A stretch of 64,000 nucleotides of DNA, taken from assembly GCA_016186625.1 (NCBI GenBank), contig JACPLG010000007.1, positions 10,426 through 74,425 on the forward strand. The letters are read 5' to 3'. The notes beneath the pieces are model-generated. The model was given only the letters and a program-made list of their open reading frames with translations. It searched no databases and was not told where the DNA came from. Source of the stretch: Candidatus Levyibacteriota bacterium. GTDB lineage: Bacteria; Patescibacteriota; Microgenomatia; Levybacterales; UBA12049. The position numbers were made by a program, and so were the translations under genes. Below are positions 112 through 53,087 of the stretch, piece by piece (position 1 is the stretch's first letter; each line of letters opens with the position of its first letter).

Positions 112-636
112 TTACCTACTCGCGCATGTGCCAACTGGTCGCCCAGTGGGCATACAAAAACCGCTACGACACTGGCTGTGATCAGTACAAGCGCTGCCGT
201 TTGTTAAACCCCCTCCTCCACCGCCCCCGCTGAGACTGGGAATGCTAAGGTTTCTTATGCTTTCAAGGCCAAAGAAGGTGAATAAGAAGTTGATTATAAA
301 GAATGCCAGAAATACGAGTATCAATCCCACCACAGAAGCAACAATTGTACCTCTGGCTTCCTCAACTTTTGTCTTATCTCCTCCTGAGAGAATCCAGCGG
401 ATACCGCCAAATATTAAAAATGCCAGGGCAATTAAGACAGCCAAAATGAATGCCAATGTTACCAGCTTTCCAATAAATCCTCCTGAAAGAGTAAAGTTGC
501 ACAGTGTTCCAAAACCCACCCCGCCTCCTCTTACGCAAGGATTTACATTTGTTTGTGCAAAGACAGGAGAAGTTATGGCGAAAAATGAAAAAATAAAAAA
601 TAAAAAAGAGGAACCTGCGGCAATTAGCTTTCTCAT
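112..636 (-). CDS. TrbC/VirB2-like T4SS-type pilin (signal peptide plus two TM helices; Gly-run and Cys-rich C-terminus)
   Basis: Motif IFGGIRWILSGGDKTKVEEARGTIVASVVGLILVFLAFFIINF is typical of CPR TrbC/VirB2 pilin domains. Likely start is the internal Met (MRKLIAAG...) preceding the hydrophobic signal peptide. Confidence 0.6.
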   Translation of the reverse strand: MRKLIAAGSSFLFFIFSFFAITSPVFAQTNVNPCVRGGGVGFGTLCNFTLSGGFIGKLVTLAFILAVLIALAFLIFGGIRWILSGGDKTKVEEARGTIVASVVGLILVFLAFFIINFLFTFFGLESIRNLSIPSLSGGGGGGGLTNGSACTDHSQCRSGFCMPTGRPVGTCASR

Positions 637-703
637 ACTTAATTCGATCGTAGAAGAATTCCTCAGGTTTGTCAAGGAGAGAGCTAATAGCTAAACTAAA
701 AGG

Positions 704-2194
704 ATGCAACTTGTTAAAATAAATAAATTTAATTTTCTGATATTAATTTCTGCTTTCTTGCTCTTTTTTGCAATAGGAACCCTTTTTCTTGACCCTGATT
801 TTGGGTGGCATATGAAAATGGGGGAGCTGATGCTTGCAAAAGGAATCCCCAAGAATGACCCCTTTTCCTACACTATGCCAAGTTACCCTTTTGTGGATCA
901 TGAGTGGCTCACGGATATTATTCTTTATCTTATCTACCAAAATATCGGATATGCCTCACTTGCAGTACTTTTTGGCCTAATAGCAGTTCTATCAATACTA
1001 ATAATGTTTAGATCAAGACAAGATCAATCCTACTTCCTCGTACCTTTTATACTCGGCGCAGGATCACTTTTGCCATCCTCGGGAGTAAGGCCCCAGGTTA
1101 TCTCCTGGCTATTTTTTTCTATTTTAGTAAGCTTCTTTTTTGATGAGAAAATCTATAAACGACTTCGTATATTTCTTCCAGTCTTTTTTCTTGCGTGGGC
1201 AAATCTTCACGGAGGATTTGCCATAGGAATTTTTACGCTCGCAACATTTATATTCTTTAAATTTCTGAAGGATAAAAAGATAAATTTTATAGATATATGG
1301 GTAGTTATTTTTTGCGCTCTAGCAACTTTAATAAATCCCTACGGTATAAATCTTTGGAAAGAAATTTATATGTCAGCCTCAGATTCATCTCTTAGATGGG
1401 GAATCCAGGAATGGGCTCCGGCATTCTTTTTCTTTAATGTCCCTCTCATAACACTTGTTTGCCTTTCAGCGTTTCTTGTCATAAGATTTAGAAAAAATTT
1501 TGGACTTTTTGAAAAAGCTCTCTATTTGGGTTTACTTTTAGCCGGATTATCAAGCGTTAGGCACATGCCATTTTTTGTCCTAGTTAGCCTGCCTCTACTT
1601 TCAAAAAGCATAGGTTTTTTGGGCAAAGAGGCAGAAAGAGTCAAATATGGAAGGCAAAGGTTTAAAAAAGCCTACACTTTTATGGTGGCTCTTTCAATTT
1701 TTACCGTAATTGTGCCGCTTGTGTCAGGAAAAGATCTCTTATTTTCCAGACAAAGCGCATATCCTGCAGATGCTTTAGGCTATTTAAAACGCAATCCTGG
1801 TAGCGGTAATTTATTTTCAGAATATGGTTGGGGAGGATATCTTATATGGAGGTATCCCGAGAAAAAAGTTTTTATAGACGGAAGAATGCCCAGCTGGCGG
1901 TGGCAGGCTGATATAAAAAATGAAAGCAATTACGCCTTCAAAGAATACAAGGATTTAATGAATGGGAAATCAAAGCTTAGTTATGCCATTAATAAATATA
2001 ATATAGATACATTTTTACTTCCTGTTCAAGTAAAAAAAGAGCTATCATATCCTGAACTTTTATTTGAGCGGCTTGAAAATAAAATATTTAGAAAAGAAAA
2101 ATATGATAATATTTATATCCAGCTAGAAAGGGAGGGCTGGAATGTTGTCTACCAGGATAAAGTTGCAATTGTTTATAGAAAGAGTAGATTATAA
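704..2194 (+). CDS. polytopic membrane protein, possibly GT-C type glycosyltransferase
   Basis: 496 aa with more than 10 predicted TM helices and a large loop. No firm family call is possible from sequence alone. Confidence 0.35.
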   Translation: MQLVKINKFNFLILISAFLLFFAIGTLFLDPDFGWHMKMGELMLAKGIPKNDPFSYTMPSYPFVDHEWLTDIILYLIYQNIGYASLAVLFGLIAVLSILIMFRSRQDQSYFLVPFILGAGSLLPSSGVRPQVISWLFFSILVSFFFDEKIYKRLRIFLPVFFLAWANLHGGFAIGIFTLATFIFFKFLKDKKINFIDIWVVIFCALATLINPYGINLWKEIYMSASDSSLRWGIQEWAPAFFFFNVPLITLVCLSAFLVIRFRKNFGLFEKALYLGLLLAGLSSVRHMPFFVLVSLPLLSKSIGFLGKEAERVKYGRQRFKKAYTFMVALSIFTVIVPLVSGKDLLFSRQSAYPADALGYLKRNPGSGNLFSEYGWGGYLIWRYPEKKVFIDGRMPSWRWQADIKNESNYAFKEYKDLMNGKSKLSYAINKYNIDTFLLPVQVKKELSYPELLFERLENKIFRKEKYDNIYIQLEREGWNVVYQDKVAIVYRKSRL

Positions 2195-2225
2195 TTATAA
2201 AATCCGAATATCGAAATTCGAAATC

Positions 2226-2340
2226 CGAAACAACAATGGTCAGAATACTCGGATGATTACTAAGATAGTTCAGAAGACTCAGAATACTCAGACCACCGGA
2301 GCATCAGAGAGTCCGACTAACAGAAAACCAGAAGACCTGT
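2226..2340. repeat. dispersed repeat family A copy (CAGAA/CTCAG word element)
   Basis: The words cagaatactcgg and cagaagactcagaatactcag are shared with the elements at 15236, 24036 and 27341. Confidence 0.5.
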
Positions 2341-2368
2341 TATTATAAGTTAATGATCAGGGATGTAA

Positions 2369-2713
2369 TTGATCTTGAAGTATATAAAGAATCGCTACGA
2401 CTTCTTAAAAAACTTTATCCTCAAAAAAGTACCCAAATCTGAATATGATTCTGTTATCCAATCTAAGAAATGTGGAAAATCAATTCCTTCGAATATTGCA
2501 GAGGGGTGGGCGAAGAGATCATCTGAAGCTGAGTTTAAAAGATTTTTGAAAATTGCAATTGGCTCAAGCGATGAATTAATCTCACATTTGCGAACAATCG
2601 CCATTGCAGTCCCAAGATTATTAGAAGAGGCAAAAGAGCTCGTTGAAGACTACAAAGTATTATCTAAAAGAATTAATAAACTTCATTCGATCTGGAGATC
2701 TGGCACATTCTGA
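2369..2713 (+). CDS. four-helix bundle protein (23S rRNA intervening-sequence protein family)
   Basis: Motifs SIPSNIAEGWAKRS and IAIGSSDELISHL are characteristic of the family. Confidence 0.75.
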   Translation: MILKYIKNRYDFLKNFILKKVPKSEYDSVIQSKKCGKSIPSNIAEGWAKRSSEAEFKRFLKIAIGSSDELISHLRTIAIAVPRLLEEAKELVEDYKVLSKRINKLHSIWRSGTF

Positions 2714-2760
2714 TTTTCTGACATTCTGGATTTCTGAGTTTTCCGAGTTTTCAGAAATAT
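2700..2760. repeat. dispersed repeat family A half-element (reverse orientation)
   Basis: Its reverse complement matches the second arm of the element at 15325..15400 (cagaaaatcaga...ccagatctccagatc). Confidence 0.5.
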
Positions 2761-2795
2761 TTCAAATTGAAAATTAACAGTCTTTTGTCCAGCGT

Positions 2796-3140
2796 CTATC
2801 TTGGAACTGTGATTCCCAGTAGCTTTACGCCAAGAAAGTCGCCGATTGTATTTATTATAAAAAAAGCAAGAAAAGCAATTATGAGTCCAATTAGAGCGTA
2901 AACTAGTCTATTTCTGGCGGCCTCAATTTTTTGTTTGTCTCCGCCGGAAGTTATCCACTGGATCCCTCCCCAAATAAGAAAAAAGAGAGAAGTTATGCTT
3001 ATGGCAATAAAAAGAACAGTTACGCCCCATCTAAGAACATCAACAGCTGTTCCAAGGCCGCCGCTTGGCATCCCTCTAACAGGGTTAATGGAATAATCCC
3101 CGGGTAAATTAAAAGCAAGACGTTCCATAGTTAAATTCAA
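2796..3140 (-). CDS. TrbC/VirB2-like pilin
   Basis: WGGIQWITSGGDKQKIEAARNRLVYALIGLIIAFLAFFIIN, plus an N-terminal signal region. Confidence 0.65.
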   Translation of the reverse strand: MNLTMERLAFNLPGDYSINPVRGMPSGGLGTAVDVLRWGVTVLFIAISITSLFFLIWGGIQWITSGGDKQKIEAARNRLVYALIGLIIAFLAFFIINTIGDFLGVKLLGITVPR

Positions 3141-3178
3141 AAGTCAAAAGTTAAAAGTCAAAAGTTAAAGTAAAAATG

Positions 3179-3553
3179 TTAAAAGTTTTTTGCCTTAAGC
3201 TTTATAACTCCTGAACCAAGCATATTTGCTATTTCTGTGACTTCTGCCAGTAATTCTTCTATTTTATAGGCTTCTGTAAGCTTAGCATCACTTAGAAGAT
3301 TAAGCCAATATTTAGTTTCATTTGCACTTTTTAAAGCAATTTCATAATATTTTTTGAACTCTAATCTGGAGCTAGATGCGCGAGCTTCTACTAAATTCGC
3401 TCCAATAGAAGTTGCAGAACGGATTAATTGGTCTGCTATTATCCATGCGCTTCTCTTGTTGGGTAAGCTATCTGTTAGCTTGATAACATTTAGACTGAAT
3501 TTATAACAGCGTTCAACAAGATCGATTTTGAATTTTGAATTTAATTTTTGCAT
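3179..3553 (-). CDS. four-helix bundle protein (23S IVS protein family)
   Basis: ATSIGANLVEARASSS and YEIALKSANETKYWL motifs. Start chosen at the internal Met (MQKLNSKF) because the upstream part of the ORF overlaps the A/T palindromic repeat. Confidence 0.7.
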   Translation of the reverse strand: MQKLNSKFKIDLVERCYKFSLNVIKLTDSLPNKRSAWIIADQLIRSATSIGANLVEARASSSRLEFKKYYEIALKSANETKYWLNLLSDAKLTEAYKIEELLAEVTEIANMLGSGVIKLKAKNF

Positions 3554-3578
3554 TTTGCCTTTTGAATTTTGACTTGTA

Positions 3579-4487
3579 TTACCCGCCGAAGCCGGGTAAC
3601 CCCAGTATATCTCTTGTAATAAGTTCAAGTATAACAAGGGAGAATATGATAAAGAGAAGTCCAACAATTGCAGCCGTAAGCTGGTCTCTGGCATTTTTTA
3701 TTTTCTCAGGATCTCCCGCAGAAGTCATAAGACGGTATCCTGAGATAATTATAATAAGAATTACAATTGCTCCTGAAATACTTAAAACAAATCCTAAGAC
3801 CCAGCGTGTAAAATTATTTGCAGAAGTACCCACCCATCCAAAAGCAGTCTTTATTCTCACACACCCTCTCTCAAAACTACTATTCGCATCACTACAAGGC
3901 TTTGACAGAGGCTGATTGGGCTCCGTTACTGACCCCGGCCTAGCTGTTGGAGGCGTCTCTTTTGTCTCGCATTTTCCATTGATATCCAAATAAGGGTCTT
4001 TATCTCTATTAAATAGATGACCATCTCTATCAAGGCAATATCTCGTAGAGCAATCAGCTTCATCCCCCTCTCTACATTGTGCATTTGAGGTGCAGTTGTT
4101 TCGCACATTTTCGCACTGTCCAGGATCTGGCAAATCTGAGGGAGAGCAGCCTCCTATTTGGCGGCAAACTGGCTCTGAGTCAGTACACACCTCTTCATTT
4201 ACAACAGGAATAAGTAGATCCATTCTTGCTTCATGGTCTGTGCTCTCATAAAGACAATAAGGCGGCGGAGGATTACCGATACCTATTTGATCGGGGTCAC
4301 AATCATAGGCTTTCCCGCATTGTGCTGCAATCCCATCAAATATTTGTGGAGTTTTGTAGCCACTTTTTAAAGGGCAGAAGTTCTCACATTTATCACCTGC
4401 TGCGCCTAAAGCTGTTTTAGGGTTTAAATATGCAAAGGAGGCTAGCAGAATAAAAAAAGAGATTAATGCAAGCAGGATTTTTCTCAT
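3579..4487 (-). CDS. secreted Cys-rich protein with C-terminal TrbC/VirB2-like pilin domain
   Basis: Signal peptide, about 20 Cys in the central domain, and a C-terminal IISGYRLMTSAGDPEKIKNARDQLTAAIVGLLFIIFSLVI pilin-like segment. Confidence 0.6.
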   Translation of the reverse strand: MRKILLALISFFILLASFAYLNPKTALGAAGDKCENFCPLKSGYKTPQIFDGIAAQCGKAYDCDPDQIGIGNPPPPYCLYESTDHEARMDLLIPVVNEEVCTDSEPVCRQIGGCSPSDLPDPGQCENVRNNCTSNAQCREGDEADCSTRYCLDRDGHLFNRDKDPYLDINGKCETKETPPTARPGSVTEPNQPLSKPCSDANSSFERGCVRIKTAFGWVGTSANNFTRWVLGFVLSISGAIVILIIIISGYRLMTSAGDPEKIKNARDQLTAAIVGLLFIIFSLVILELITRDILGLPGFGG

Positions 4488-4911: not shown

Positions 4912-5517
4912 GTGATGCTCAGAAATACCATGGAAACGGAAACCGATCAGGGATTACTCCTTAAAGAAATCACTTTATTTTTAGGCAAGAATAAAATCCC
5001 CTATATGATCACAGGTGCATGGAGTGTAATTTTTTATGCAAGGCCCCGCGCTTCTCATGACATTGATTTTGTGGTAGAGATGCATGAGAGAGATTTAGAT
5101 AAAATATTAAAGATTTTTGAAAGATTACCCAAAGAATTTCTCGTGCAGCCCGAGCAGATTAAAGACGCCATTTTAAACAAGGGAATGTTTAACATTCTTC
5201 ATTTGCCAACAGCGTTAAAGCTCGATTTCTGGATGCTGGGAAATGGTAAATTCAATAAAAGCCGTTTCTTACGAAAGAAAAGAAAGAGTATTTTAGGGCA
5301 ATTTATGTATATAGCAAGTCCTGAAGACACTATTCTTAAAAAGCTGTTTTGGTACGAGGAATCAAAAATAGAGAAACACTTAATAGATGCTGCATTTGTA
5401 TATCAAATTCAGAATAAAAATCTCGACAAGGCTTATCTATCCAAATGGGCAAAAAAACATAAAATACAAAAGTTACTGGGAGAATTAAAATCGATAGACC
5501 TGGAGTCTTACTACTAA
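4912..5517 (+). CDS. nucleotidyltransferase-like protein, possibly frameshifted from an upstream 4794 start
   Basis: GAWSVIFYARPRASHDIDFVV resembles the NTase fold. The 57-codon ORF starting at 4794 overlaps it in another frame. Confidence 0.4.
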   Translation: MMLRNTMETETDQGLLLKEITLFLGKNKIPYMITGAWSVIFYARPRASHDIDFVVEMHERDLDKILKIFERLPKEFLVQPEQIKDAILNKGMFNILHLPTALKLDFWMLGNGKFNKSRFLRKKRKSILGQFMYIASPEDTILKKLFWYEESKIEKHLIDAAFVYQIQNKNLDKAYLSKWAKKHKIQKLLGELKSIDLESYY

Positions 5518-5638
5518 ATATTTTTTAAATCCCAACTGTAATTATCTAATCCTAAACAATATCCAAATTTGAATTTTAAAATTTTTTGATCATTTTAATT
5601 TGTTTCGGATTTCGTATTTAGGATTTCGAATTTGAAAT

Positions 5639-6997
5639 TTACGGATTAAATTTGAATCCTCTTCCTTTCACGGTCTGAATGTGTTGAGGTTGGTTGGGGT
5701 TTTCTTCTATCTTTTTCCTGACTCTAAAAATTAGTTGGTCTAGGGCTTGTTCACTTACCCCTGCTGTTGAGGAAAGGTCTGCCCAGACAGCATTAATTAT
5801 CTCATCTCTTTCAAGGATTTTTCCTGAGTTCTGTGCCATGAATTTTAAAAGTTTAAACTCAGAAGAAGTGAGCCCTTCGGATATGATAATCTCGCCTTTC
5901 CTGATTTCATTAGCTTGTTCATCGAAAACAATGTCTTGGCTTTTGGTTTCAATTTGATCTTTTGCAAAAGCTTCAAGCAGAGGTACGGTAATTTTTCCAT
6001 CCTTAATTAGACCAACTTTTTCAAGATGGGCAAGCTCAGAACTAGACGCTAGACGCTGATCACTAGACGCTAGTAGGCCTTGCTCATATGGGGAGAGTGA
6101 GCTCCAAATTTCATCCAAAACGGCACGTACTCGGTTTTGATTCATGAGAAAACCGAGTAAATTGTTCGATTGTTTCATTGTCTCATTGCTGTTTAAACAG
6201 GATTCGATGCTAACTAGCCATAATTTACCTAATCCCCCTGTAATCTTAGTTACTTCATCAAGGACTTTTTTATCTACACTTTTCCCTGTTGTTTTTTTAA
6301 GATATGAAAGTCTGAATTCCCTTATTTTCTCATCTCCCAGAGTTAAATAGACCAAATTTCCGACTAAAAATTCATAAAAAGAGGAAATAATTTCTGTCCC
6401 AACAGTATCCTCAAGCGGGCGATTGAGAGGAAAAACGCATGAGAAGCGGTATTTGGCTCTATCTCTAAGGACTCGTAAATGGTCAAAAAAGACAGGTTCC
6501 AAAACTCCCACGTATTCTTCAAATCGATCGAACAGTAAGATTAGGCTCAGTTCTTTTTCAAGACAGAGGTAATCAATTGTTTTCTTAAGGCCCTGGAAAA
6601 TCACCATTTCATCGCCTGATTTTAAGCCTTGGTCAAACAGCTCCTTAACACTCTTATGTTCCTCGTTCATTTTTCGGGCAGACAATGACTCAAGGATTTC
6701 AAGGAAAATATATTTTGTTGAGTCTGCTAAAGGCCTTTTTTTAATTTCTGCAAAATTCATCATCACAAAGTGAAACCATTTCTGGTTTTCTCCCAGATGA
6801 AGCTTGCGAACTGAATGATTGTATGCCAGGATCCGAAGAACATTTGATCTTCCCACTCCCCGAAGTGAAATCACCTGGCAGGAATTACCGCTTTTAAAAA
6901 AAGAGAGAATCTTCTCAATCTCCTCAAAACGCGAATCAGCGGGATAGAGACTCTCGAAGTGAGTCGTTTCCATTGTTCCATTATTCAATTGTTTCAT
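5639..6997 (-). CDS. P-loop NTPase (STAND/ORC-like) fused to a C-terminal OmpR/PhoB-type winged-helix DNA-binding domain
   Basis: Degenerate Walker A LRGVGRSN, Walker B-like LILLFDRFEE. C-terminus ALDQLIFRVRKKIE...HIQTVKGRGFKF matches the OmpR wHTH. Contains an in-frame tagacgctag repeat at 6025..6075. Confidence 0.6.
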   Translation of the reverse strand: MKQLNNGTMETTHFESLYPADSRFEEIEKILSFFKSGNSCQVISLRGVGRSNVLRILAYNHSVRKLHLGENQKWFHFVMMNFAEIKKRPLADSTKYIFLEILESLSARKMNEEHKSVKELFDQGLKSGDEMVIFQGLKKTIDYLCLEKELSLILLFDRFEEYVGVLEPVFFDHLRVLRDRAKYRFSCVFPLNRPLEDTVGTEIISSFYEFLVGNLVYLTLGDEKIREFRLSYLKKTTGKSVDKKVLDEVTKITGGLGKLWLVSIESCLNSNETMKQSNNLLGFLMNQNRVRAVLDEIWSSLSPYEQGLLASSDQRLASSSELAHLEKVGLIKDGKITVPLLEAFAKDQIETKSQDIVFDEQANEIRKGEIIISEGLTSSEFKLLKFMAQNSGKILERDEIINAVWADLSSTAGVSEQALDQLIFRVRKKIEENPNQPQHIQTVKGRGFKFNP

Positions 6998-7001
6998 TGT
7001 T

Positions 7002-7541
7002 CTAAAAGCTAAGACGCTTAATTCGCTTTCTAAAAAGGTTTTCGGTGTATCCGCCTTCCTCTATAAAGCTTTTTTCCAAAGACTGAATTTGCCTATCCAA
7101 AAGATAATTAGCTTGATTTATTAGGCAAATTAAGCAGTTAGCCGCAGTTTCGGGAGACTTCAGATAGGACCTATAGGTCTCATATGACTTATCAGTCTTA
7201 TAGGTCAGATTTCTAATTTCCCAAGCACGCGGATCATCCTTGTCCCAAATTTTAAGTCCTCGTTGTCTTAAGAAATCCTCATAATCTAGTAGAAGTTCTT
7301 CAAGAGAGGCTCTGGCAACGCCCACAAGCTTTATTTCTGATTTCTTTGAAGTACCTGATGCCTGAGATCCCTCTGCTATATTTTGTCTCCCTGATCTTGC
7401 AGCCTGAACCATTTGGTCATAAGTTCTTGAGGTTTTCTTTATATATAAATTACAGAATTCAGCAGTCAGATCATAAATCAAAGTAGCTGTTTGATAAGAC
7501 TTGAGATTTCGGTATCCTCCATGAGCTTTCTGCTTTTGCAT
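7002..7541 (-). CDS. four-helix bundle protein (23S IVS protein family, long form)
   Basis: N-terminal GGYRNLKSYQ with RSGRQNIAEGS and ARASLEEL motifs. Confidence 0.7.
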   Translation of the reverse strand: MQKQKAHGGYRNLKSYQTATLIYDLTAEFCNLYIKKTSRTYDQMVQAARSGRQNIAEGSQASGTSKKSEIKLVGVARASLEELLLDYEDFLRQRGLKIWDKDDPRAWEIRNLTYKTDKSYETYRSYLKSPETAANCLICLINQANYLLDRQIQSLEKSFIEEGGYTENLFRKRIKRLSF

Positions 7542-7658
7542 GGATCAATTATAGTTCATTAATCTTTAATCTTAAATCATTAATCTGAGGAAATCTGTAA
7601 AGTTTTTATAAGGCAAATATCAAGGCAAAATGTTTACTTAGAGATAGAATGCTCGCAT

Positions 7659-10600
7659 ATGACAAATGAAATGCAACCCGTTCGACCCGCTTCGCAGCGA
7701 GGCGAGCAAGCTCAGGGCGAGCAAGCTCGATTGACAGGGCAAAACATTAATCCTACACTGAGAAGTGAAGGAAATATTTTCATGCCGGATGCAGCTACGG
7801 GGATAAAAGTGGAAAATCCAACTACAACAGAAGGAAAAGACACTCCCGCGGAAAAAGCCACTGATGATACGCCAAAGTTTAATGGTCAAGGAAAAGACGC
7901 CGATTCCAGGACAACACTAAAGGTTATAAGCGAAGAAAATAGTGTTCCGCAAGATGTAAGAGAAGCCGCAAGAAGAGAGTTGGAAAGAGCAAAAGAAACA
8001 CACAGGGAATCTATCAGAAAAGAGTGGCAAAAGGCAAAATCAGAAGCAAAAGAAGGAGTACTAGATGATGATTCAATTGAGGCTGCCATTGAGGCGGGGC
8101 ATGGCCCAGATACTCACACTTCTAAATTATTAACCAACTTAACTGCAAGGCAGGTAATTGAGAATGCCAATCTTGACAGAGAAAGCGAAATGACACCGCA
8201 GGAAGCAAAGGAGCTTCTGGAAAGAGACAAATTATCAGAGAAGGATCAAAATGAGATTCTTGAAGCTCACCGAGAAAGACTGGATAAAGCAGAGACATTA
8301 CTTGGCAGAAAGATTTCAGTTGGACAAAAACTGGCTATTCTGCGAGCCCATTATGTAGGTTTGGGAGAATTGGGCAAAAATGGAAAGGACGCGGGAGTTT
8401 TTAACCTTAAAAAAGATCAGATTGAAAGAAGAGTAGTAATTCTAGAGAAGGCAGGGTTTAATAAAGACCAAATACGCGTACTCATAGAATCCGGCCTAAT
8501 AGCCATGGGTGCACCACCTCCCGCCCCGGGAACTGAACAATATTATACCCAGCAGATAGAAAATGTCATAAACGACTTGGACGCACTGCTAACGCCCAGA
8601 GCTGGTCATTTTACCGATACCTTTGTTGATGACACAAGTCAGCAAATACACGAACTATATACAGTTCCACGCCAAGAGCGGGAATCTGCTCGAATATGGC
8701 TAGATCGTCATGCAAACGAGGTTTACAAATATGGATCAGAACATCCAGGGCCCGCGGCGAGAGAAGCCCGAGAATTAATGGGATTTATTCGAAGGATAGC
8801 AAGTATAGACGATATAAGGCTTGGTAGAGAAGAGCAGAACGAAAGATTTAGAATCGAATTTGATACTCTTAAAGCAGATCCAGGCGCACGGGATGCGTTA
8901 GTTGAGAAAGTAATAGAGTATGTAGCAAGTATTAATCCTTCTCACCGCGAAATACCAAGCGATATTTTAAAACGAATTATCCAAACAGAGGATGAGGGAA
9001 AATCACTTGAGCGATTAGTTATTAGAATTGTTGGTACTCCTCTTCAGTCAGAGACAGGAGAGTATAGCCTTGGGTTTTATGGCAACATCAACCTAGAATC
9101 AATAAGTAATCTTTTGCAAGCAATGTCTGAAAATCCAAATCTAGAAGGTTTACAAAATCTTCCCAGGGGAGAACAGAGACGAGTGATGGACGCTAGATAC
9201 TATCAATTGCAAGAAGTCCACACAATTAAAGAGGGAGTAAGATATATCCATGAACTTAACAAGTATACTGTTACGGATCAGTTGGAAAATGCTAGGCAAT
9301 TAGGGAATCAGATGCCCCCAGAATATCTTAATAAGTTTCAAAGGCTAAAAGGTGTGGGAACTGTTATGAGATATCTTGAGTGGGCTCTTTCAGAGGTAGT
9401 TTCAAGAGAGGGTATTCTAAACAATGAAAACTTTAATAAATTAACAGGACAGGTTAGAAACCCAGACACAGGAAAATACGAAGTTAGTCAAGAGAGTTCA
9501 GTTTTTCAATCCTTCAGAAGATACATTGACATGCTAAGAAGTGGCCGGGATATAAATGGCGCCATTCTTTCTCCCAATGACCTTACTGAACTTGCCGGTT
9601 TGGAAGATTGGGAAATAAGACTAGCCTACAATATTGGGAGAAACCTTTATAACGTTGAGCATAGAAGCGTAGAGTGGGCTGCACAAGGAAGTCCCAGACC
9701 CGGATATAGCATGTGGAAATCTCCTGTTATGGAAGGATTTGCAAGGATCTTGAATTTCGGAAAGTGGTTGAATTTAAGATTTGCACTCGGAGAAGGTAGA
9801 GGAGGAATGGTTTTATTTAAGCATGTCATAGAAGTTATGCAAAGGCTAAGGCGCAATAAAGGCTATGAGAGAAATAACCCTATGACACTTGATAAAATCA
9901 AAGGTGAAGATATTGCTATGTTTGAACTGGCAAATATGACTGCGCCAAGAGGCTTCTGGGCTTCGTGGAGAGCAATGGGTGGTCTTTTGGAACAATTTGC
10001 AGCGAAATTTCATATTCGACCAAACACGCTCATTAGCGGTTATGACGTAATACATGATAAAGATGTATTGAATCCCCAGGATACTAATTTAGCATTTATA
10101 TTAGATTTCCAAGCTTTATCACTCAAAAGAGGCAACGAAGATCCTATAAAATGGGACAAAGCTACGGATGAGATGAAAATGGACTATTTAAGAGCCGTTT
10201 TTCTAAATCCGGAAAACCCAGCCCAACTGCGCCCTGATCTTAGGATTGGACTTGGCGCAATTCTTAGAATAGCCCTGACTCCAGAAGGGGGCAAAAAACA
10301 TCGGGAACTAGATAGTCTTAGGGAGACTATTAGAACCAAGATCTGGGAAAGAGTAGCAGAAGATAATCCTCTAGCTGTTGCTCCATATCTGCACGGATTG
10401 AAATATAAAGGCGGGAGAACTGTAGATATATATAATCATAATCCAAATGTAAATTGGCTGGAATTTTCCAGAAAGCTGGCATACCTAAATGAAATAAGAC
10501 TCGCTCATATTAGAGGCTATAGAGACCCAGCTACAGGCCGGATTGTAGCGAGTATAAATTATACACTCCAAGACGCAATAAATAGCGTGAGAAATGCAAC

Positions 10601-11378
10601 CCAAGGCCGTCCCGATGCCTCCCTTTATAACTTAACTGGGGCTGAAAATGATTTACTGCAGCATATTACTTTAGAAGGAAGGACAGCTGCAGCAGATCTT
10701 GCAAATGTGGAATTCCCTTTTATCCCTTTCCTTAACGATATACTTTTTGAAAGGGCTGATTATGATGAGCCTGGAGCTCAAGCTGTGGGAAGGCATTTTA
10801 ATGACTTGGCTCAAATTCATGGTTCTAACCAAGCATCAGCCGACATGTTAGTCTTTCCTGCCCAATTTATTCAAAAGGATCCTAATGCTACAGTAGAAGC
10901 ATTTAAGAAATTTGAGCAAGGAATAACAGCAGTACACGGAGATAAAGTAGGCAAAGCTAGGTTATATCCGTTTGTTGAATCGATACTTTGGTTTCATAGG
11001 AGAGGAGAAAATGGGGGCGGTCGAGTTAGAAGGTTTATTAGGAAGCAGGATGAGATTCATACGATACTGCAGAAATTTAGAATCCCAAAGATTGGATACA
11101 ACTCAGTAGCTCAGCAAGAGCTCAAAAGTTACAAACCTGAAACCCTAGACCTTGGGCAAGTTTTTGATTACATTGATTTACTTAGCGCTGAGGGACTGAT
11201 GGGTGAAGATGAACAAGATGAAGCAAAGAAAAGGCTTGGAGGCGCAGGCCGCTTTGGATGGCTCTTTATACTTAGAATGATCTGGGAGGGAGTTCAGAGA
11301 GGTACAAAAGCAGGTGCTGTAATTGGAGGAGCAGAGCTTCTTAAAAGATCATTTAATCCTAAAGGGGCTGTTGAATAA
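7659..11378 (+). CDS. giant hypothetical protein (1239 aa), no recognisable domain
   Basis: Long uninterrupted ORF with normal codon bias. Charged, coiled-coil-like N-terminal 300 aa. No TM segment or catalytic motif recognised. Confidence 0.5.
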   Translation: MTNEMQPVRPASQRGEQAQGEQARLTGQNINPTLRSEGNIFMPDAATGIKVENPTTTEGKDTPAEKATDDTPKFNGQGKDADSRTTLKVISEENSVPQDVREAARRELERAKETHRESIRKEWQKAKSEAKEGVLDDDSIEAAIEAGHGPDTHTSKLLTNLTARQVIENANLDRESEMTPQEAKELLERDKLSEKDQNEILEAHRERLDKAETLLGRKISVGQKLAILRAHYVGLGELGKNGKDAGVFNLKKDQIERRVVILEKAGFNKDQIRVLIESGLIAMGAPPPAPGTEQYYTQQIENVINDLDALLTPRAGHFTDTFVDDTSQQIHELYTVPRQERESARIWLDRHANEVYKYGSEHPGPAAREARELMGFIRRIASIDDIRLGREEQNERFRIEFDTLKADPGARDALVEKVIEYVASINPSHREIPSDILKRIIQTEDEGKSLERLVIRIVGTPLQSETGEYSLGFYGNINLESISNLLQAMSENPNLEGLQNLPRGEQRRVMDARYYQLQEVHTIKEGVRYIHELNKYTVTDQLENARQLGNQMPPEYLNKFQRLKGVGTVMRYLEWALSEVVSREGILNNENFNKLTGQVRNPDTGKYEVSQESSVFQSFRRYIDMLRSGRDINGAILSPNDLTELAGLEDWEIRLAYNIGRNLYNVEHRSVEWAAQGSPRPGYSMWKSPVMEGFARILNFGKWLNLRFALGEGRGGMVLFKHVIEVMQRLRRNKGYERNNPMTLDKIKGEDIAMFELANMTAPRGFWASWRAMGGLLEQFAAKFHIRPNTLISGYDVIHDKDVLNPQDTNLAFILDFQALSLKRGNEDPIKWDKATDEMKMDYLRAVFLNPENPAQLRPDLRIGLGAILRIALTPEGGKKHRELDSLRETIRTKIWERVAEDNPLAVAPYLHGLKYKGGRTVDIYNHNPNVNWLEFSRKLAYLNEIRLAHIRGYRDPATGRIVASINYTLQDAINSVRNATQGRPDASLYNLTGAENDLLQHITLEGRTAAADLANVEFPFIPFLNDILFERADYDEPGAQAVGRHFNDLAQIHGSNQASADMLVFPAQFIQKDPNATVEAFKKFEQGITAVHGDKVGKARLYPFVESILWFHRRGENGGGRVRRFIRKQDEIHTILQKFRIPKIGYNSVAQQELKSYKPETLDLGQVFDYIDLLSAEGLMGEDEQDEAKKRLGGAGRFGWLFILRMIWEGVQRGTKAGAVIGGAELLKRSFNPKGAVE

Positions 11379-11381
11379 TCA

Positions 11382-13034
11382 TTAAATTTTAAAGATTTGT
11401 CTCCAAACAGCTTGTGGACCACCTTTTACTCCAGGCGCGGGAGTCTTCATTGAATAAGCAGCAGTACCTCTGGCAAAAGCTCCTATGGTGGCACCTGCTT
11501 CACCTGCGGGTTGGAAGACAGGGCCGTAGTTAACTCCTGTTGCTTTTATAGCGCTTCTTGTTACATTAAGAACGTTTGGAGTGAGGAACAGAAATCCTAA
11601 GGCAATAATTCCTGAGAAAATCGGTGATCCTGCGCCTGCGCCACCTCCCGCCAGAGGAGGAATAAATATCGGGCCAGTTGCACCAAAGAGGCTTGGGTCT
11701 GCCGCAATCTGGCTAAATACTTTACCAAGAATAATCATTGAAAGCGCAGTTGGGAATACAGCCAAGTTGGCAATCATGTCCTTAAACCACGCGCCTACTC
11801 CAACAGTTGATCCTGGGAAGAGGCCAATAAGAAACCAGAAAGGCGCAAAAACTATGTCAATAAGAATAGTTATATAAGCAACAATTAGTATTATCCAAAG
11901 CCTTATTGCCGTATAAATTAAGGCAATAAATATTATTAGTGCGGATAAGACTCCCACAATTAGCCCTACTACTGCTGCAAACATATTGCCAATAATGTCA
12001 AAAAAGCCTGGTTCAAATTTGAAATCGGATGGTGGTACTCCCCCGGGAGAACCATTCAGCGCTACCTCAACCAGTCTTCTAATTGTATCCGAGCCTTGGG
12101 CAGCAAGTTCAGGAAATCCTCCCCCACCTATAACCTCTAAATCCGGATCTCCTGGCCAGAGCCTGTTTATTAAATCAAAAGGAGTGGGGGAAGTTGCAAT
12201 TTCATTAAAGCCGATTTGCTGCGCGGTGGCAGAAGGTTGCCTGATAAGATCAAAAAGGATACCCCCAACTAAATAAATTGCAACGTACATAACATCAACC
12301 AGAAATCCGGCAATTGCAAAGGAAAATGTGACCAGAAGTATTCCTACAATTATTCTGGGAATCTGGTTCTCAATGGTCATAACAGTTCTGGGATCTATAT
12401 GGACCCTAAGCATTATGGCAAGGCCAATTAGGACAAAAATTAGAACAAATAGAAGATAGGCAATATTTCTCATGGCAACCCAGATTGAAATAAGGGGCCT
12501 GATGCCACAAAACCCTACTCCTTGCGAAGCGCCTGCGCATAGATTGGTCTGGGCATATGCTTTTTTGGTTATGCCAAAATTGCCAGCCAAATAGTTTATA
12601 TACTCTCCGGAGCTTACTGGAGGGGTGAAAGTGTAGGCAATAAATGTTCCTATTATCCCAACCGCTCCATTGCCGTTTTCCACAAACCCGATTTTTCCTG
12701 TCACAGGATCAATACCCAAACACTCCTGGCCACTTCTTACTAAATCCATACCTGAGAGCTGGCAGACCATGGCAGCCATCACCTCAATTACTACAGACTG
12801 AACATAACTGTGCTGGTCTTTGGGCACATCCGGATTTAAGTTGGGAGCATAAGCGGCTGATTGCTGATTGCTGATTGCTGATTGCTGATTTCCAACTACT
12901 ACAGTAGCGTTGGTTTGAGCATAGGCTGTTCCAATATAAAATATAAAATAGAAAAAAGAAAATAGACCGAAGAATAAAACTAAACGCTTAACGCTTAACG
13001 CTAGACGCTTCGCTTGGGCAGCAATTCTCATCAA
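11382..13034 (-). CDS. polytopic membrane protein, VirB6/TrbL-like
   Basis: Signal peptide, 6 or more TM helices, Gly-rich loops. An in-frame ctgattg x5 repeat at 12855..12895 and a gcttaacgc repeat lie in the N-terminal region. Confidence 0.45.
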   Translation of the reverse strand: MMRIAAQAKRLALSVKRLVLFFGLFSFFYFIFYIGTAYAQTNATVVVGNQQSAISNQQSAAYAPNLNPDVPKDQHSYVQSVVIEVMAAMVCQLSGMDLVRSGQECLGIDPVTGKIGFVENGNGAVGIIGTFIAYTFTPPVSSGEYINYLAGNFGITKKAYAQTNLCAGASQGVGFCGIRPLISIWVAMRNIAYLLFVLIFVLIGLAIMLRVHIDPRTVMTIENQIPRIIVGILLVTFSFAIAGFLVDVMYVAIYLVGGILFDLIRQPSATAQQIGFNEIATSPTPFDLINRLWPGDPDLEVIGGGGFPELAAQGSDTIRRLVEVALNGSPGGVPPSDFKFEPGFFDIIGNMFAAVVGLIVGVLSALIIFIALIYTAIRLWIILIVAYITILIDIVFAPFWFLIGLFPGSTVGVGAWFKDMIANLAVFPTALSMIILGKVFSQIAADPSLFGATGPIFIPPLAGGGAGAGSPIFSGIIALGFLFLTPNVLNVTRSAIKATGVNYGPVFQPAGEAGATIGAFARGTAAYSMKTPAPGVKGGPQAVWRQIFKI

Positions 13035-13261: not shown

Positions 13262-14674
13262 TTAAGCGGGTCTTCTTTGTGGCTGAGAAGTCTGTTCCAC
13301 AGTACCTCTTGCCTGTTTGAATGAATCCATTACGGTATTTGCAAATAAGACTAAAAAGATACCTAATAAGAAACTTCTTATCCTTCTTTTCCTTTTCTCA
13401 TGTCTGATCATTAAATAATGCTGGTTTGCCCCCTCATATCTTGCTTCAGCTCGATCAATTTTACTTTGATCGCCGGATCTAATTGCCTCATCAAGCTCTG
13501 ATTTTAATTGGTCTCTGTATGCTTTTGCCCCTTCATCAGCTTTTGCCACTCGTTCTTCATACGAGCGAGTTGAGTCTGTCTTGGCAGCTTTTTTCATTGG
13601 CTCAAAAACCCTCTCTTTATATAGCTCAGCATGCTGTTTTCTTATTTCACTTGAACTACTATCAGCATTTGTTCCTCTTCCAAATAAGGTACGGATTCTT
13701 GAACCCAGATGTCCAAGCTTTCCTCCAATCGCTCTCTCAGCTTGTGCCCTGATATAAGAGGAATTAAGAAGCTCATCATTTTCTTCAGCCTCTTGCAGTC
13801 TTGTTTCAAACAATTTTCTATCTTGTGCATTTAAATTTCCTTCTGCTTTTTCCTCAGCCTCAGCCAACTCCTTTTGAACATCTGCGGCAAAAGAAAATAT
13901 AGGTTCGGCCGTTTCATCAGGCTCCGGAGGTTCTGCGGCAGGTGTGTCTGGCTCATCGTCTACAGGAGGAGCCTCGGCAGGTACTCCGGCGACATCCTGA
14001 TTTTCAGCTCCTACAACATCTTTTGGAGCTTCTTCAATTTCCGAACTTTCTGCTACTGTTGGGGCATCCGCCTCATCTTGAGCTGATGTAGGCGATTCAA
14101 CTATAGGGCCTGCTGCTTCCGTGGCAGAATCTGACACCTCCTTAAACCTGAGCTTTGCTGCCTCATGTCTTAATCTAGCCTGTTTAATAGCAAGTTCGTT
14201 TCCAGAAGCAAGCGCGTCATTGAGTTCTTGTAGCGTACTATCTCTGGCGGAGGCTACATCAGCAAGCTTATCTTCCACAGGACGATAATTTGCTTCGGAT
14301 CCAACAGGAGTCGGTTCCGCAGTTTCTATTGTGGGTTCAGCTGGAGTAGTTTCTGGGGAAGCATTTTTGTCTCCTGCTGATTCAGGTGTCATTGGTTCAG
14401 CGACTGGTGGAGGAAGAGATGCGGGGTCCACATCTGCTACTGTTGCCAAGCCATTATCAACAGCAGGCGGCGCAGCTTCTTCAGACTGGCCTCCTATTGC
14501 TGTTTGAACTCTCGCTGCTAGAGCTTCACCAGCTGTGGTTTCGGCGTGGCTTGGCCCAGCTGGAGATCCGCTTTCTGGAGTCGAACTTCCGGCTGCTTCC
14601 ACAGCGCCTGGTGATGCTCCTGCTTCTGCCGGTGGTGGAGCGACTGTTATGTCTGGTGATGGTAATCCTCCCAT
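13262..14674 (-). CDS. acidic Ala/Glu/Pro-rich low-complexity protein with C-terminal TM anchor
   Basis: 470 aa with coiled-coil segments. C-terminal FLLGIFLVLFANTV is hydrophobic. Confidence 0.5.
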   Translation of the reverse strand: MGGLPSPDITVAPPPAEAGASPGAVEAAGSSTPESGSPAGPSHAETTAGEALAARVQTAIGGQSEEAAPPAVDNGLATVADVDPASLPPPVAEPMTPESAGDKNASPETTPAEPTIETAEPTPVGSEANYRPVEDKLADVASARDSTLQELNDALASGNELAIKQARLRHEAAKLRFKEVSDSATEAAGPIVESPTSAQDEADAPTVAESSEIEEAPKDVVGAENQDVAGVPAEAPPVDDEPDTPAAEPPEPDETAEPIFSFAADVQKELAEAEEKAEGNLNAQDRKLFETRLQEAEENDELLNSSYIRAQAERAIGGKLGHLGSRIRTLFGRGTNADSSSSEIRKQHAELYKERVFEPMKKAAKTDSTRSYEERVAKADEGAKAYRDQLKSELDEAIRSGDQSKIDRAEARYEGANQHYLMIRHEKRKRRIRSFLLGIFLVLFANTVMDSFKQARGTVEQTSQPQRRPA

Positions 14675-14873
14675 ATACCCTTTCTTTAGTCTAAGCTTAC
14701 TTAGCTTAGTTTGTCAAAGTATACAGTGAGGCAAGCCCGACAGCTTGATAACAACTTTACAGAAAGATTATAAGATTAGACGGTAGATGATAGATAATTG
14801 AAGATAGAATTTTTGAAGATAGAAGATTGAGGATGGATCGATTTTCTATTTTCCATATCCAAATTCCTACTTT

Positions 14874-15227
14874 CTATGTTCTATTTTCTATCGTCGAACT
14901 CTCCGTCAGGGTTTTGGCAGTTGAAATTGCTGAGTCAATATTGCCCTGTCTTATAAAATCCCGCATTTGATTTAAAACCTGGTCTCTTTTTTCATCAGTT
15001 GCTTTTTCAAGCTCATCAAGATAAACTTTCTCAGCCTCAGGATATTTTTGTCCCAAGTTTTTAAGCTTTTGCAAAAGATCAGCCTGGTCTTTTATAGGAA
15101 GAACGGCAAGGAAATCACGGGCCAGTTGCTGAGCCGCCCCAGCCTCAATTTTATTACTCTTAAGATGCTCGATAATAAGTTGGAGCAACTCTTTTTTTAC
15201 TTCTTCAACCTCTTGCGTAATATCCAC
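14874..15227 (-). CDS. hypothetical helical protein
   Basis: 117-aa ORF with no recognised motif. Confidence 0.45.
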   Translation of the reverse strand: MDITQEVEEVKKELLQLIIEHLKSNKIEAGAAQQLARDFLAVLPIKDQADLLQKLKNLGQKYPEAEKVYLDELEKATDEKRDQVLNQMRDFIRQGNIDSAISTAKTLTESSTIENRT

Positions 15228-38583: not shown

Positions 38584-39033
38584 ATGAAGTGTCCATATTG
38601 CGGATCAAAAGATACTGAAGTAGTTGAAACCAGAGACTCGGAAGATTTGGAAACCATTAGGAGGAGACGAAACTGCGTTAAATGTGAGAAAAGATTTACT
38701 ACATATGAGCGAGTCGAGAATGTTAATCTGGTTGTTATTAAAAAAGACGGAAGGAGAGAGCAATTTAATAGAGACAAGCTCAAAAATGGAATTATTAGAT
38801 CCTGCGAAAAGACCAAAGTTTCGGTTGAAGACATAGAGAAAATTGTTACAGAAGTTGAAAGAGAACTGCGAGGTGCAGACTCGGTTGAGGTAGAAAGTAA
38901 AAAGATCGGGCAGATGGTTGCGGGCAAATTAAAAAAGTTAGACAAGATAGCATACATCCGTTTTTCAAGTGTATTTAGAAGATTTGTAGATATTGAAGAT
39001 TTTGAGAAAGAAGTAAAGAAACTTATTAACTAA
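38584..39033 (+). CDS. nrdR: transcriptional repressor NrdR
   Basis: MKCPYCGSKDTEVVETR zinc ribbon plus ATP-cone. Confidence 0.9.
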   Translation: MKCPYCGSKDTEVVETRDSEDLETIRRRRNCVKCEKRFTTYERVENVNLVVIKKDGRREQFNRDKLKNGIIRSCEKTKVSVEDIEKIVTEVERELRGADSVEVESKKIGQMVAGKLKKLDKIAYIRFSSVFRRFVDIEDFEKEVKKLIN

Positions 39034-39127
39034 GTCAAAAAGCAAAATGCAAAAGTCAAAATTTAAAGTAAAAAGTAAAAAAGTTTAATAATTTTGAATT
39101 GTACTTTTGAGTTTTGATTTTTAACTT

Positions 39128-51776: not shown

Positions 51777-53087
51777 ATGAATAAACCAACCTTCAAAATC
51801 ATTTCTAAAGATGGAAAAGCGCGGGCCGGTGAGATCAAAACAGACCATGGCATCGTGCTGACTCCTGCTTTTTTGCCTGTAGGGACGAAGGCTACGGTAA
51901 AGAGTTTAACTCCGCAGCAATTAAAAGAGATTGGAATTGAGGCTGTTTTAGCAAACACATATCATCTGCATCTCCAGCCGGGAGAAGATACGATTGGAAA
52001 GCTTGGCGGATTGCATAAGTTTATGAATTGGAATAAACCTCTTATGACTGATTCCGGAGGATTTCAGGTTTTTTCTTTGGGGGTTGGGCTTGAAAAACCG
52101 GGAGTAAAATTCCTAAAAGATTTAGACTATGGAAGATTGAAGATAGAAAATAGAACTTTGAAGGTAGAAGATAGAAGATCGAACCATCATCCATCCTCCA
52201 TCATCAATAATCTATCATCCACCGTCAATCCTCTATCGTCAAATGAAGAGTCGCGCCCTCGTTTAAACAGAATTACAGAGGAGGGAGTGGAGTTTCAGTC
52301 TCATATTGATGGAAGCAAACACAAACTTACACCTGAACTATCTGTGGAAATCCAAGAGAAAATCGGTGCTGATCTCATCATAGCGTTTGATGATTTAGAG
52401 TCTCCGACATATTCTTTCGAACAAACAAAAAAAAGCTTGGAACTAACCAATCGCTGGGAACTCAGAAGTCTAAAAACCCATTTAGCCTTCCAAGGCGTCG
52501 CCTTGGAGCCTCAAAGGCAGCTTTTGTATGGGGTCACCCACGGAGGGCAGTTTGAAAGCTTGCGGAGAGAATCGGCGAGATTTGTTGACAAACATTTTGA
52601 TGCTGTAGCTTTGGGTGGAGCCCATCGCAACAAATCGAACATGTATCAGGTGATTGAATGGACCGTTGAAGAGCTCGATGAAGAAAAACCTAGACATATG
52701 TTGGGAATTGGAGAAGTGGATGATATTTTTGAGGTGATTGAGCGAGGAGTTGATACATTTGACTGCGTAATTCCAACTCGGCTTGGACGAATGGGCCACG
52801 TTTTCATCTATCCTCCAGAAGGAAATATTAAGAATCGGTTCAGATACGATATAACCAAGTCCAAATATGCAAAAGACCAGCGACCAATAGCCAAAGACTG
52901 CGACTGCTACGTTTGTCAAAATTTCACCCAAGCCTATATAAACCATCTATTTCGAAGCCGCGAACTCTTAGCTTACACTCTTGCCACCTACCACAACGTT
53001 TATTTTATTAATGATTTAACCAACAAAATTCGCCAGGCTATTTTAAATAAGAAGTTTATTGAATTAAAGAAAAAATGGTTACTGTAG
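51777..53087 (+). CDS. tgt: queuine tRNA-ribosyltransferase with a repeat-derived internal insertion
   Basis: LTPAFLPVGTKATVK, MTDSGGFQVFSLG, and Zn-site CxCxxC...H motifs. An approximately 55-aa insertion at 52085..52265 is built of gaagatagaa-type repeat words. Confidence 0.85.
   Translation: MNKPTFKIISKDGKARAGEIKTDHGIVLTPAFLPVGTKATVKSLTPQQLKEIGIEAVLANTYHLHLQPGEDTIGKLGGLHKFMNWNKPLMTDSGGFQVFSLGVGLEKPGVKFLKDLDYGRLKIENRTLKVEDRRSNHHPSSIINNLSSTVNPLSSNEESRPRLNRITEEGVEFQSHIDGSKHKLTPELSVEIQEKIGADLIIAFDDLESPTYSFEQTKKSLELTNRWELRSLKTHLAFQGVALEPQRQLLYGVTHGGQFESLRRESARFVDKHFDAVALGGAHRNKSNMYQVIEWTVEELDEEKPRHMLGIGEVDDIFEVIERGVDTFDCVIPTRLGRMGHVFIYPPEGNIKNRFRYDITKSKYAKDQRPIAKDCDCYVCQNFTQAYINHLFRSRELLAYTLATYHNVYFINDLTNKIRQAILNKKFIELKKKWLL

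Follow-up and report, generated by a model that had tools for sequence, protein, structure and literature searches.

What kind of switch stands beside the divergent large gene of a Candidatus Levyibacteriota bacterium, and on which DNA does it act? The locus lies in a stretch of 64,000 nucleotides (nt) (GenBank assembly GCA_016186625.1, contig JACPLG010000007.1, positions 10,426 to 74,425 of the forward strand; hereafter the window), in which a regulator of 452 amino acids (aa) on the minus strand has pilin genes of a type IV secretion system (T4SS) downstream and, upstream, a divergent gap bordered by a gene for a 1239-aa protein. A first-pass annotation of this DNA, made from the sequence alone, had described the regulator as a degenerate P-loop nucleoside triphosphatase (NTPase) fused to a C-terminal OmpR/PhoB-type winged helix, and had placed its operator in a tcattaatct sequence found twice in the gap. 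Our analysis points, with moderate confidence, to a MalT-like STAND-OmpR switch of the T4SS/pilin cluster, for which a set of three phased hexamers would be the candidate operator. The features needed for the argument are these:

5639..6997, minus strand: regulator, 452 aa as the longest open reading frame (ORF), with the likely true start at M9 (6973), giving 444 aa
5963..6940, minus strand: predicted N-terminal AAA+/STAND-like NTPase module (core, helical lid, winged-helix subdomain), about aa 20-345, placed from the AlphaFold2 (AF2) model, Foldseek and distant homologues
6842..6859, minus strand: Walker A-like loop GVGRSN (G47-N52), with Arg50 at the canonical Lys site in alignments
6515..6544, minus strand: Walker B-like strand LILLFDRFEE, with D157 invariant and followed by Arg rather than a catalytic Glu
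5648..5872, minus strand: OmpR/PhoB-type winged helix (Trans_reg_C), aa 376-450, from hidden Markov model (HMM), PDB and Foldseek matches
7002..7541, minus strand: four-helix-bundle gene, 179 aa (HMM matches to 23S_rRNA_IVP/TIGR02436 and TIGR04258 4helix_suffix)
7542-7658: divergent intergenic gap between the four-helix-bundle gene and the large gene
7548..7575, minus strand: sigma-70-like site TTAAGA-16-TATAAT, 10/12 matches, within the heptamer array
7559..7586, no strand assigned: period-7 tandem array TTAATCT x4, holding both tcattaatct copies (Tandem Repeats Finder)
7593..7624, minus strand: conserved module and candidate operator CTTGATA, CCTTATAA, CTTTACAG, from motif alignment
7623..7618, 7611..7606 and 7600..7595, minus strand: hexamers of the candidate operator, TTGATA, TTATAA and TTACAG respectively
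7645..7650, plus strand: -10-like box TAGAAT for the large gene, whose ATG follows after 8 nt; exactly 21 nt separate it from the opposite-strand TTGATA
7659..11378, plus strand: divergent large gene ('giant gene'), 1239 aa, with a conserved ELT..NPTL..G.IFMP motif near the N-terminus

The C-terminal domain of the regulator is an OmpR/PhoB winged helix, as the first-pass annotation had it. Trans_reg_C (PF00486) scores 71.4 bits over aa 376-450 (cut-off 26.2; E=6.7e-20), the match spanning positions 6-77 of the 77 in the model. The same model is matched by each of the 30 aligned homologues, and the C-terminus aligns with the DNA-binding domains of many OmpR/PhoB proteins, both in NCBIfam and among response regulators in PDB. 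In an AF2 model built on the 30-sequence alignment (mean predicted local distance difference test score 86, predicted template modelling (TM) score 0.80), aa 356-450 form an N-terminal beta-sheet, three helices including the recognition helix alpha3, and a C-terminal beta-hairpin wing. Foldseek matched this part to the DNA-binding domains of YycF, RstA, KdpE and VicR with target-normalised TM scores of 0.76-0.79, and also to ToxR; the recognition helix, EQALDQLIFRVRKKIE, is nearly invariant across the regulator family. Matches in NCBIfam and PDB are limited to the C-terminal ~100 aa, no Response_reg/receiver domain was matched in the regulator, and Pfam gave no BTAD, NB-ARC, TPR or GerE match in the regulator or its aligned homologues. 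A two-component response regulator (REC plus Trans_reg_C) was ruled out, there being no receiver and the N-terminus having the fold of a P-loop NTPase. As to the length of the protein, translation probably begins at 6973 (M9), because most homologues start at the equivalent residue, an identical database protein (P0001; 100% identity, annotated 'winged helix-turn-helix domain-containing protein') has 444 aa, and the eight additional codons of the longer ORF (MKQLNNGT) sit in an 8-bp-period repeat, TTCCATTG x4.4, at 6968-7002.

Structural modelling and distant homologues support an AAA+/STAND-type P-loop NTPase fold for the N-terminal 350 aa, in agreement with the annotated P-loop NTPase. Sequence models weigh against this call: the isolated N-terminal 355 aa reached nothing in Pfam even at E<=10, and AAA_35 was touched by only 4 of the 30 close homologues; one of the 30 reached nSTAND1, at E=0.18. 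Because Pfam gave no N-terminal match, evidence from fold and remote homology was needed. The AF2 model runs from a five-stranded P-loop core (strands 40-43, 75-81, 151-157, 185-191 and 215-217) through a helical lid (223-269) and a small winged-helix-like subdomain (helical/winged-helix region 273-337) to the OmpR domain, with NTPase subdomain boundaries taken from secondary structure only; in it GVGRSN follows strand 40-43 and leads into helix 50-59, while strand 151-157 holds LILLFDRFEE. Searched against PDB with Foldseek, the N-terminal part retrieved Orc4, Cdc6, archaeal ORC2, PABY2304 (2qen), SSO1545 (2fna), CED-4 and MalT (8bob_C), the matches to CED-4, MalT, ORC/Cdc6, PABY2304 and SSO1545 having E-values of 5e-6 to 3e-4. 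At the level of sequence, homology to nSTAND1, AAA_16 and AAA_22 is transitive only: phmmer leads from the regulator to P0172, P0174 and P0216 at E ~1e-15, and those proteins score nSTAND1 at 31-36 bits against a cut-off of 27.1.

The nucleotide-binding motifs themselves depart from the canonical GxxxxGK[ST] and acidic Walker B, the regulator having R50 in the former and an Arg after D157 in the latter. The annotated Lys-to-Arg change in GVGRSN was placed correctly, at aa 47-52, since Arg50 stands exactly where relatives, which read GKSN, have the Walker A Lys. Across 96 full-length cluster representatives this column holds K in 61, R in 21, I in 13 and Q in 1, and the Walker B Asp occurs as DQ, DR or DE. 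Residues G47, G49, R50, S51, N52 and D157 are invariant throughout the 30-sequence clade, while P0136, 37% identical to the regulator and in the same T4SS synteny, carries GKST; judged from these alignments, the arginine is a derived, clade-wide state and not a one-off. Because Arg is fixed at Walker A and DR stands at Walker B, hydrolysis is probably weak or lost, and the module most likely works by binding nucleotide or another ligand and shifting its conformation or oligomeric state while hydrolysing little or nothing.

The regulator is part of a large family. A HMMER search with the N-terminal 348 aa against 1.84 billion cluster representatives (E<=1e-3; clusters at 50% identity) recovered at least 398 clusters, with almost all members of 430-465 aa. 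Judged from these matches, a compact NTPase with a C-terminal Trans_reg_C is a common arrangement among uncharacterised proteins; the first-pass annotation was right that the domain order is the reverse of that in AfsR and other SARPs. When ten distant members were scanned, nine carried Trans_reg_C, at the C-terminus in the eight of ordinary length and internally in P0205 (1784 aa); the tenth, P0204 (642 aa), has an N-terminal Ser/Thr kinase and no Trans_reg_C. P0205 also carries TIR and TCAD9 domains beside its Trans_reg_C, and P0172 adjoins TCAD9/APH genes. The nSTAND1 cut-off was passed by P0172, P0174, P0204 and P0216, with weaker AAA_16/AAA_22 matches in most of the ten. Since the NTPase module has distant relatives built into larger proteins of conflict-system type, the T4SS regulator of the candidate phyla radiation (CPR) may go back to a STAND family of conflict systems.

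The regulator heads a T4SS-like cluster in all the long contigs examined (L001-L005, L086-L087). Gene order runs from a ~550-aa membrane protein through the large gene, the divergent gap, an optional four-helix-bundle gene and the regulator to three to five T4SS_pilin genes, PrgI, a TraC-like gene and VirB4. Pilin, PrgI, TraC-like and VirB4 (DUF87/AAA_10) genes lie downstream of the regulator in L001-L003, and pilin arrays also in L004, L005, L086 and L087, accompanied by PrgI in L005 and a TraC-like gene in L086; in our locus VirB4 itself falls outside the window on the pilin side. This synteny is strict across regulators of 37-100% identity, and the conserved linkage with VirB4, PrgI/VirB3-like genes and VirB2-like pilin arrays identifies an MPF-FATA-like T4SS cluster (PMC12102498). 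Neither a regulator nor a promoter is mentioned in the 2025 survey of patescibacterial T4SSs, in which VirB4, PrgI, VirB6 and pilin arrays are described (PMC12102498). Among 80 genome loci, most of those with enough upstream sequence have a large divergent ORF next to the regulator. We infer from this context that the regulator is a dedicated transcription factor of the T4SS/pilin cluster.

Alignment of the divergent gaps revealed a conserved two-way promoter module. On the regulator strand the gaps read tttCAT ATG..g..AgTTTA - 21 nt - CTTGATATttacCTTAcAAAAaaaTTACAAT, with information peaks on all three hexamers; the CAT is the start codon of the large gene on the opposite strand, and AgTTTA is the reverse complement of its -10 box (TAAACT), for which no recognisable -35 box is present. 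Read the other way, TTGATA-17-TACAAT forms a near-consensus promoter of the regulator operon, whose spacer holds the conserved third hexamer. The units can be written CTTGATA-N5-CTTAYAA-N4-(C)TTACAAT, with start-to-start spacings of 12 and 11 bp, and in the window they include a 12-bp tandem, TTTGCCTTGATA|TTTGCCTTATAA. Among 66 unique modules TTGATA is found in 58, the middle box TTA[CT]A[AG] in 50 and TTACAAT in 38, and the A.T.TA hexamer of the reverse -10 lies exactly 21 nt upstream in 62. Because the reverse -10 was absent from the scoring matrix, it provides independent evidence of a fixed geometry. Could the middle hexamer belong, as -35 or -10 box, to a further promoter overlapping this one? 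On neither strand do the spacings fit.

The module is rare outside this context and follows the large gene when gene order changes. A position weight matrix finds only two strong sites in the window, of 36.7 bits at 7625 and 27.7 bits at 14743, both in gaps of the T4SS cluster; where the -35/-10 scores are comparable elsewhere, the middle box scores strongly negative. Across 871 kb of related loci, nearly all matches of >=18 bits stand beside the regulator or the large gene, the exceptions being a second module in L001 and one match in L052. Six rearranged genomes have the large gene downstream of the regulator; in these the motif has kept its place at the start of the large gene, and in L038 it sits 25 bp from the regulator stop codon and points back at the regulator; because it faces the 3' end of the gene there, the module is not simply the regulator's promoter. 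L086, whose regulator is 37% identical and which lay outside the training set, has two modules that share a lineage-specific middle box, CCTCACA. We also scanned 241 million metagenome records with the motif alone (CTTGATA-N6-TTAYAA-N5-TTACAAT). Of the 56 stretches recovered, 40 encode the regulator within the fetched stretch (37 directly downstream, 3 in rearranged order), four others show the reverse -10 with no regulator detected, the contigs of three being too short to show one, and about 12 look like chance matches in AT-rich DNA.

The geometry of the module suggests how the switch might work; operator binding is proposed because the tandem repeats bound by OmpR, PhoB and SARP proteins are arranged alike, over a -35 box that is weak or missing. 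In the case of AfsR, two direct repeats of 11 bp are bound, and they overlap the -35 box (PMC10936776). The regulator would bind the three phased hexamers as head-to-tail oligomers. On the model of MalT and other STAND proteins, its NTPase-like module would make oligomerisation on the repeats depend on the state of a ligand or nucleotide. On the regulator/pilin side the repeats coincide with the -35 box, spacer and -10 box, and on the large-gene side they lie at about -34 to -62, with hexamers centred near -36, -48 and -59. Bound oligomers would then activate the large-gene promoter, which has a good -10 (TAAACT/TAGAAT) and no -35, in the manner of PhoB, OmpR and SARPs, while the same binding would set the level of the regulator-pilin operon. 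A bolder form of this proposal is possible but rather unlikely. In it, a STAND switch impaired in hydrolysis and joined to an OmpR winged helix would turn the host-contact apparatus of CPR bacteria (T4SS pilins and the fast-evolving giant protein) on and off as its master regulator, sense a ligand derived from the host or from contact, and toggle the two-way promoter of fixed geometry through the three hexamers. Were it true, a single protein would here take the place of two-component signalling, in organisms that have very few regulators.

The operator first proposed, a tcattaatct pair recognised by the OmpR domain and controlling the large gene, has to be weighed against these hexamers. The pair exists: TCATTAATCT occurs exactly twice in the window and nowhere else in it, at 7556-7565 and 7577-7586, 21 bp apart, whereas shuffled sequence has 0.38 matches on average and reaches two in 3 of 100 cases; the repeat extends to 19 nt at 79%, and two helical turns would suit tandem winged-helix binding. 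It does not stand as a locus-specific pair, for the 21-bp spacing amounts to three heptamers of a period-7 array (TTAATCT starts at 7559, 7566 and 7580), and 37 such arrays occur in the window, where 20 dinucleotide shuffles yield 0-5, so that the repeat is non-random and yet not specific to this locus. Neither is it conserved in orthologous loci, an outcome that the first-pass annotation had itself named as refuting the proposal. A near-identical AGATTAA/TGATTTA array recurs at the same position only in L015, L016 and, in part, L039, and at another place in L076; the 33 loci without an inserted gene have a short leader with no repeats and no array; the closest relative, L001, with a 79% identical regulator, has CATTGCT repeats in its place; and unrelated heptamers stand in L002 (TTAGC-type), L004 and L076 (ATTTATC/ATTTATG), L023 (AAAGGCA), L025 (CAAAGTT), L020 and L021. 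An array that is so variable and often absent cannot be the conserved target of a regulator whose recognition helix is almost invariant. It lies downstream of the conserved promoter, 10-65 bp from the module, and overlaps TTAAGA-16-TATAAT, which ends 6 nt before the ATG of the four-helix-bundle gene. To judge from its position and variability, the array is the leader or promoter of that inserted gene and not the operator of the regulator, and we regard the original proposal as highly improbable. The general idea of an OmpR domain on phased direct repeats in the gap remains plausible, with the repeats at 7593-7624, phased by 11-12 bp, as most likely the better candidate operator.

Several observations weigh against an operator in the module as well. 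The TTGATA and TACAAT hexamers look like ordinary -35 and -10 boxes, and because two of the three hexamers do so, conservation could reflect a constrained two-way sigma-70 promoter; in the window the third repeat, TTACAG, lacks the final T of the -10 box; a search of L002, L004 and L005 for a second module, in front of the gene for the ~550-aa membrane protein, found none; and the motif-first scan is by itself no proof of binding by the regulator, because orthologous promoters track a gene by descent. The module might thus be only two strongly constrained sigma-70 promoters set back to back, in which the middle box serves as UP element or spacer, the regulator binding somewhere else or controlling other genes. 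The near-consensus TTGATA-17-TACAAT, the reverse -10 at a fixed 21 nt, and the A/T-rich middle box, which relative to the large-gene promoter falls in the region of UP-element action (about -46 to -51), would all suit such a pair. An UP element leaves unexplained the conserved C or CC before the TTA units and the CCTCACA common to both L086 modules, and a promoter pair sits poorly with a motif that persists before the large gene in L038 with nothing to transcribe forward, with other promoters in the same loci that differ (TTGACA...CAAACTA), and with a type of site present only twice in 64 kb; we consider it unlikely, if a genuine possibility. Much less probable in our view is that the regulator is a conflict or defence STAND sensor, comparable to nSTAND1 of ternary conflict systems, with an incidental T4SS neighbourhood. 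In its favour, distant relatives stand beside or within TCAD9, TIR or kinase proteins (P0205, P0204 and the P0172 neighbourhood), and nSTAND1 was defined in counter-invader systems (PMC8195603), but the regulator gave no PADLOC match, has no effector domain beyond its DNA-binding domain, and keeps its strict pilin/PrgI/VirB4 synteny even among regulators only 37% identical.

The favoured reading, a STAND-OmpR switch acting through the phased hexamers, can be set beside the known systems, since STAND-type switch regulators and OmpR-type DNA-binding domains are both known kinds. MalT oligomerises on binding ligand and ATP, and binds repeated boxes upstream of weak promoters. With MalT and the LAL proteins the regulator shares an N-terminal STAND-type NTPase switch and a C-terminal DNA-binding domain, but the DNA-binding domain of MalT is of LuxR/GerE type and that of the regulator of OmpR/PhoB type; the regulator is also only ~445 aa long, lacks a TPR/SUPR sensor domain and has Arg for the Walker A Lys. 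No sequence-level membership of this group was found for it, and the similarity is limited to the NTPase fold. AfsR and other SARPs likewise combine an OmpR-type winged helix with a STAND NTPase, and SARP dimers bind 11-bp direct repeats over the -35 box and spacer of weak promoters (PMC10936776), which is the geometry of the candidate operator. They differ in having the winged helix at the N-terminus and not the C-terminus and in their BTAD domain, to which AfsR adds NB-ARC and TPR, and they belong to another phylum and control other genes. Compared with OmpR/PhoB response regulators, the regulator has a full-length, high-scoring Trans_reg_C of matching structure, for which recognition of tandem direct repeats would be expected, but neither a REC domain nor a partner kinase, its input being NTPase-like and of STAND type. 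Finally, it resembles nSTAND1 (PF20703), AAA_35, AAA_16, the archaeal ATPase_2 proteins PABY2304 and SSO1545, and ORC/Cdc6 in its P-loop core, lid and winged-helix subdomain, yet matches none of these models and is distinguished by an Arg P-loop, a Walker B of DR rather than DE or DD, and an OmpR output.

To our knowledge, what is new is the union of a compact nSTAND1-related module with a C-terminal OmpR domain, with natural Walker A variants, dedicated to a CPR T4SS/pilin locus; our literature search found no description of a compact NTPase with C-terminal OmpR domain as regulator of a CPR T4SS locus. The family extends the repertoire of STAND regulators (MalT, AfsR) to this architecture, and its Walker A variants (K, R and I) are useful for asking which steps of STAND switching need hydrolysis. 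T4SS/pilin genes are essential for the epibiotic growth of cultivated Saccharibacteria and widespread in Patescibacteria, and a transcription factor linked to the cluster, with a sharply defined and highly specific cis-module, offers a handle on how these symbionts control their host-interaction machinery.

The large proteins, of 800-1300 aa across loci, are fast-evolving. The 1239-aa protein of the window had no match in Pfam, NCBIfam or PADLOC, and tblastn with it recovered close relatives only (19 loci); because tblastn reaches no further, the case for family-wide homology depends on where the large proteins are encoded, how long they are and a short motif, ELT..(N/H)P(T/S)L...G(D/N)IFM(P/S)(D/E), which is N-terminal, ~15-40 aa from the start (L001-L085; window 7659-7800). 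This motif, which may be a secretion or processing signal, was found in 29 of 63 proteins with a looser pattern and 11 of 63 with a strict one. The start codon lies inside the conserved CATATG, and because the -10 box is only ~8 nt away, the mRNA is predicted to have a very short leader or none.

Beyond the regulator and its gap, the window contains the following:

11382..13034, minus strand: polytopic membrane protein, 550 aa, convergent with the large gene, a neighbour kept across loci
13262..14674, minus strand: 470-aa gene, bordering the second module
14718..14773, plus strand: second module copy, AGTATA, 21 nt, CTTGATA-N5-CTTTACAG-N5-ATTATAA
3579..4487, 2796..3140 and 112..675 (112..4487 overall), minus strand: T4SS_pilin genes downstream of the regulator
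3179..3694, minus strand: second four-helix-bundle gene, amid the pilin genes
4912..5517, plus strand: weakly AbiEii/DUF6036-like nucleotidyltransferase gene between the regulator and the pilin genes (Pfam E=8e-5, barely over the cut-off)

The second module keeps the same 21-nt geometry (AGTATA at 14718-14723), its CTTGATA repeats beginning at 14745. It is flanked on one side by the 470-aa gene, after which come a tRNA-Ser and the 550-aa membrane-protein gene, and on the other by a DUF5673-like gene. L001 shares this module, which there drives genes of 192 and 248 aa. Beyond the module in the window are two inverted heptamer arrays (14772-14827 and 14841-14891) and a small minus-strand ORF, 14874..15227. 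In other loci the ~550-aa membrane-protein gene has a conserved promoter of its own, clearly unlike the module, TTGACAtnTgTAAAAAtA..CAAACTAtA (L002:5000-5072, L004:4830-4892, L005:5200-5262), and this TTGACA...CAAACTA has the look of an ordinary promoter in these genomes.

The regulator does not itself adjoin the intergenic gap, the 179-aa four-helix-bundle gene intervening. Between regulator and large gene there is no gene in 33 loci and a four-helix-bundle gene (120-180 aa) in 23, and because they are present in some and absent from others of otherwise collinear orthologous loci, these genes appear to behave as mobile cassettes. The array was considered as a constant companion of the gene, which mostly holds, except that L016 and L039 have the array without it. 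The period-7 arrays of the window lie mostly between genes, frequently paired (side by side or inverted) and on the flanks of four-helix-bundle (23S_rRNA_IVP) genes; examples lie at 3133-3186/3525-3572, 5603-5633, 12856-13010, 14772-14827/14841-14891, 39032-39136, 52132-52221 and 62391-62498. Their unit sequence varies from array to array and between orthologous loci, and they resemble the STRR repeats of cyanobacteria; our literature search found no CPR description of heptanucleotide arrays, nor of a link to four-helix-bundle (IVP) genes.

PADLOC returned no match for any of the four proteins given to it (regulator, large protein, AbiEii-like protein, four-helix-bundle protein). Many of the genome records among L006-L085 are titled 'uncultured Gammaproteobacteria bacterium', which looks like a labelling artefact of submission. 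At the site that corresponds to the AbiEii-like gene of the window, L001 carries a HicA toxin gene, and the site seems to accumulate insertions of toxin-antitoxin type.

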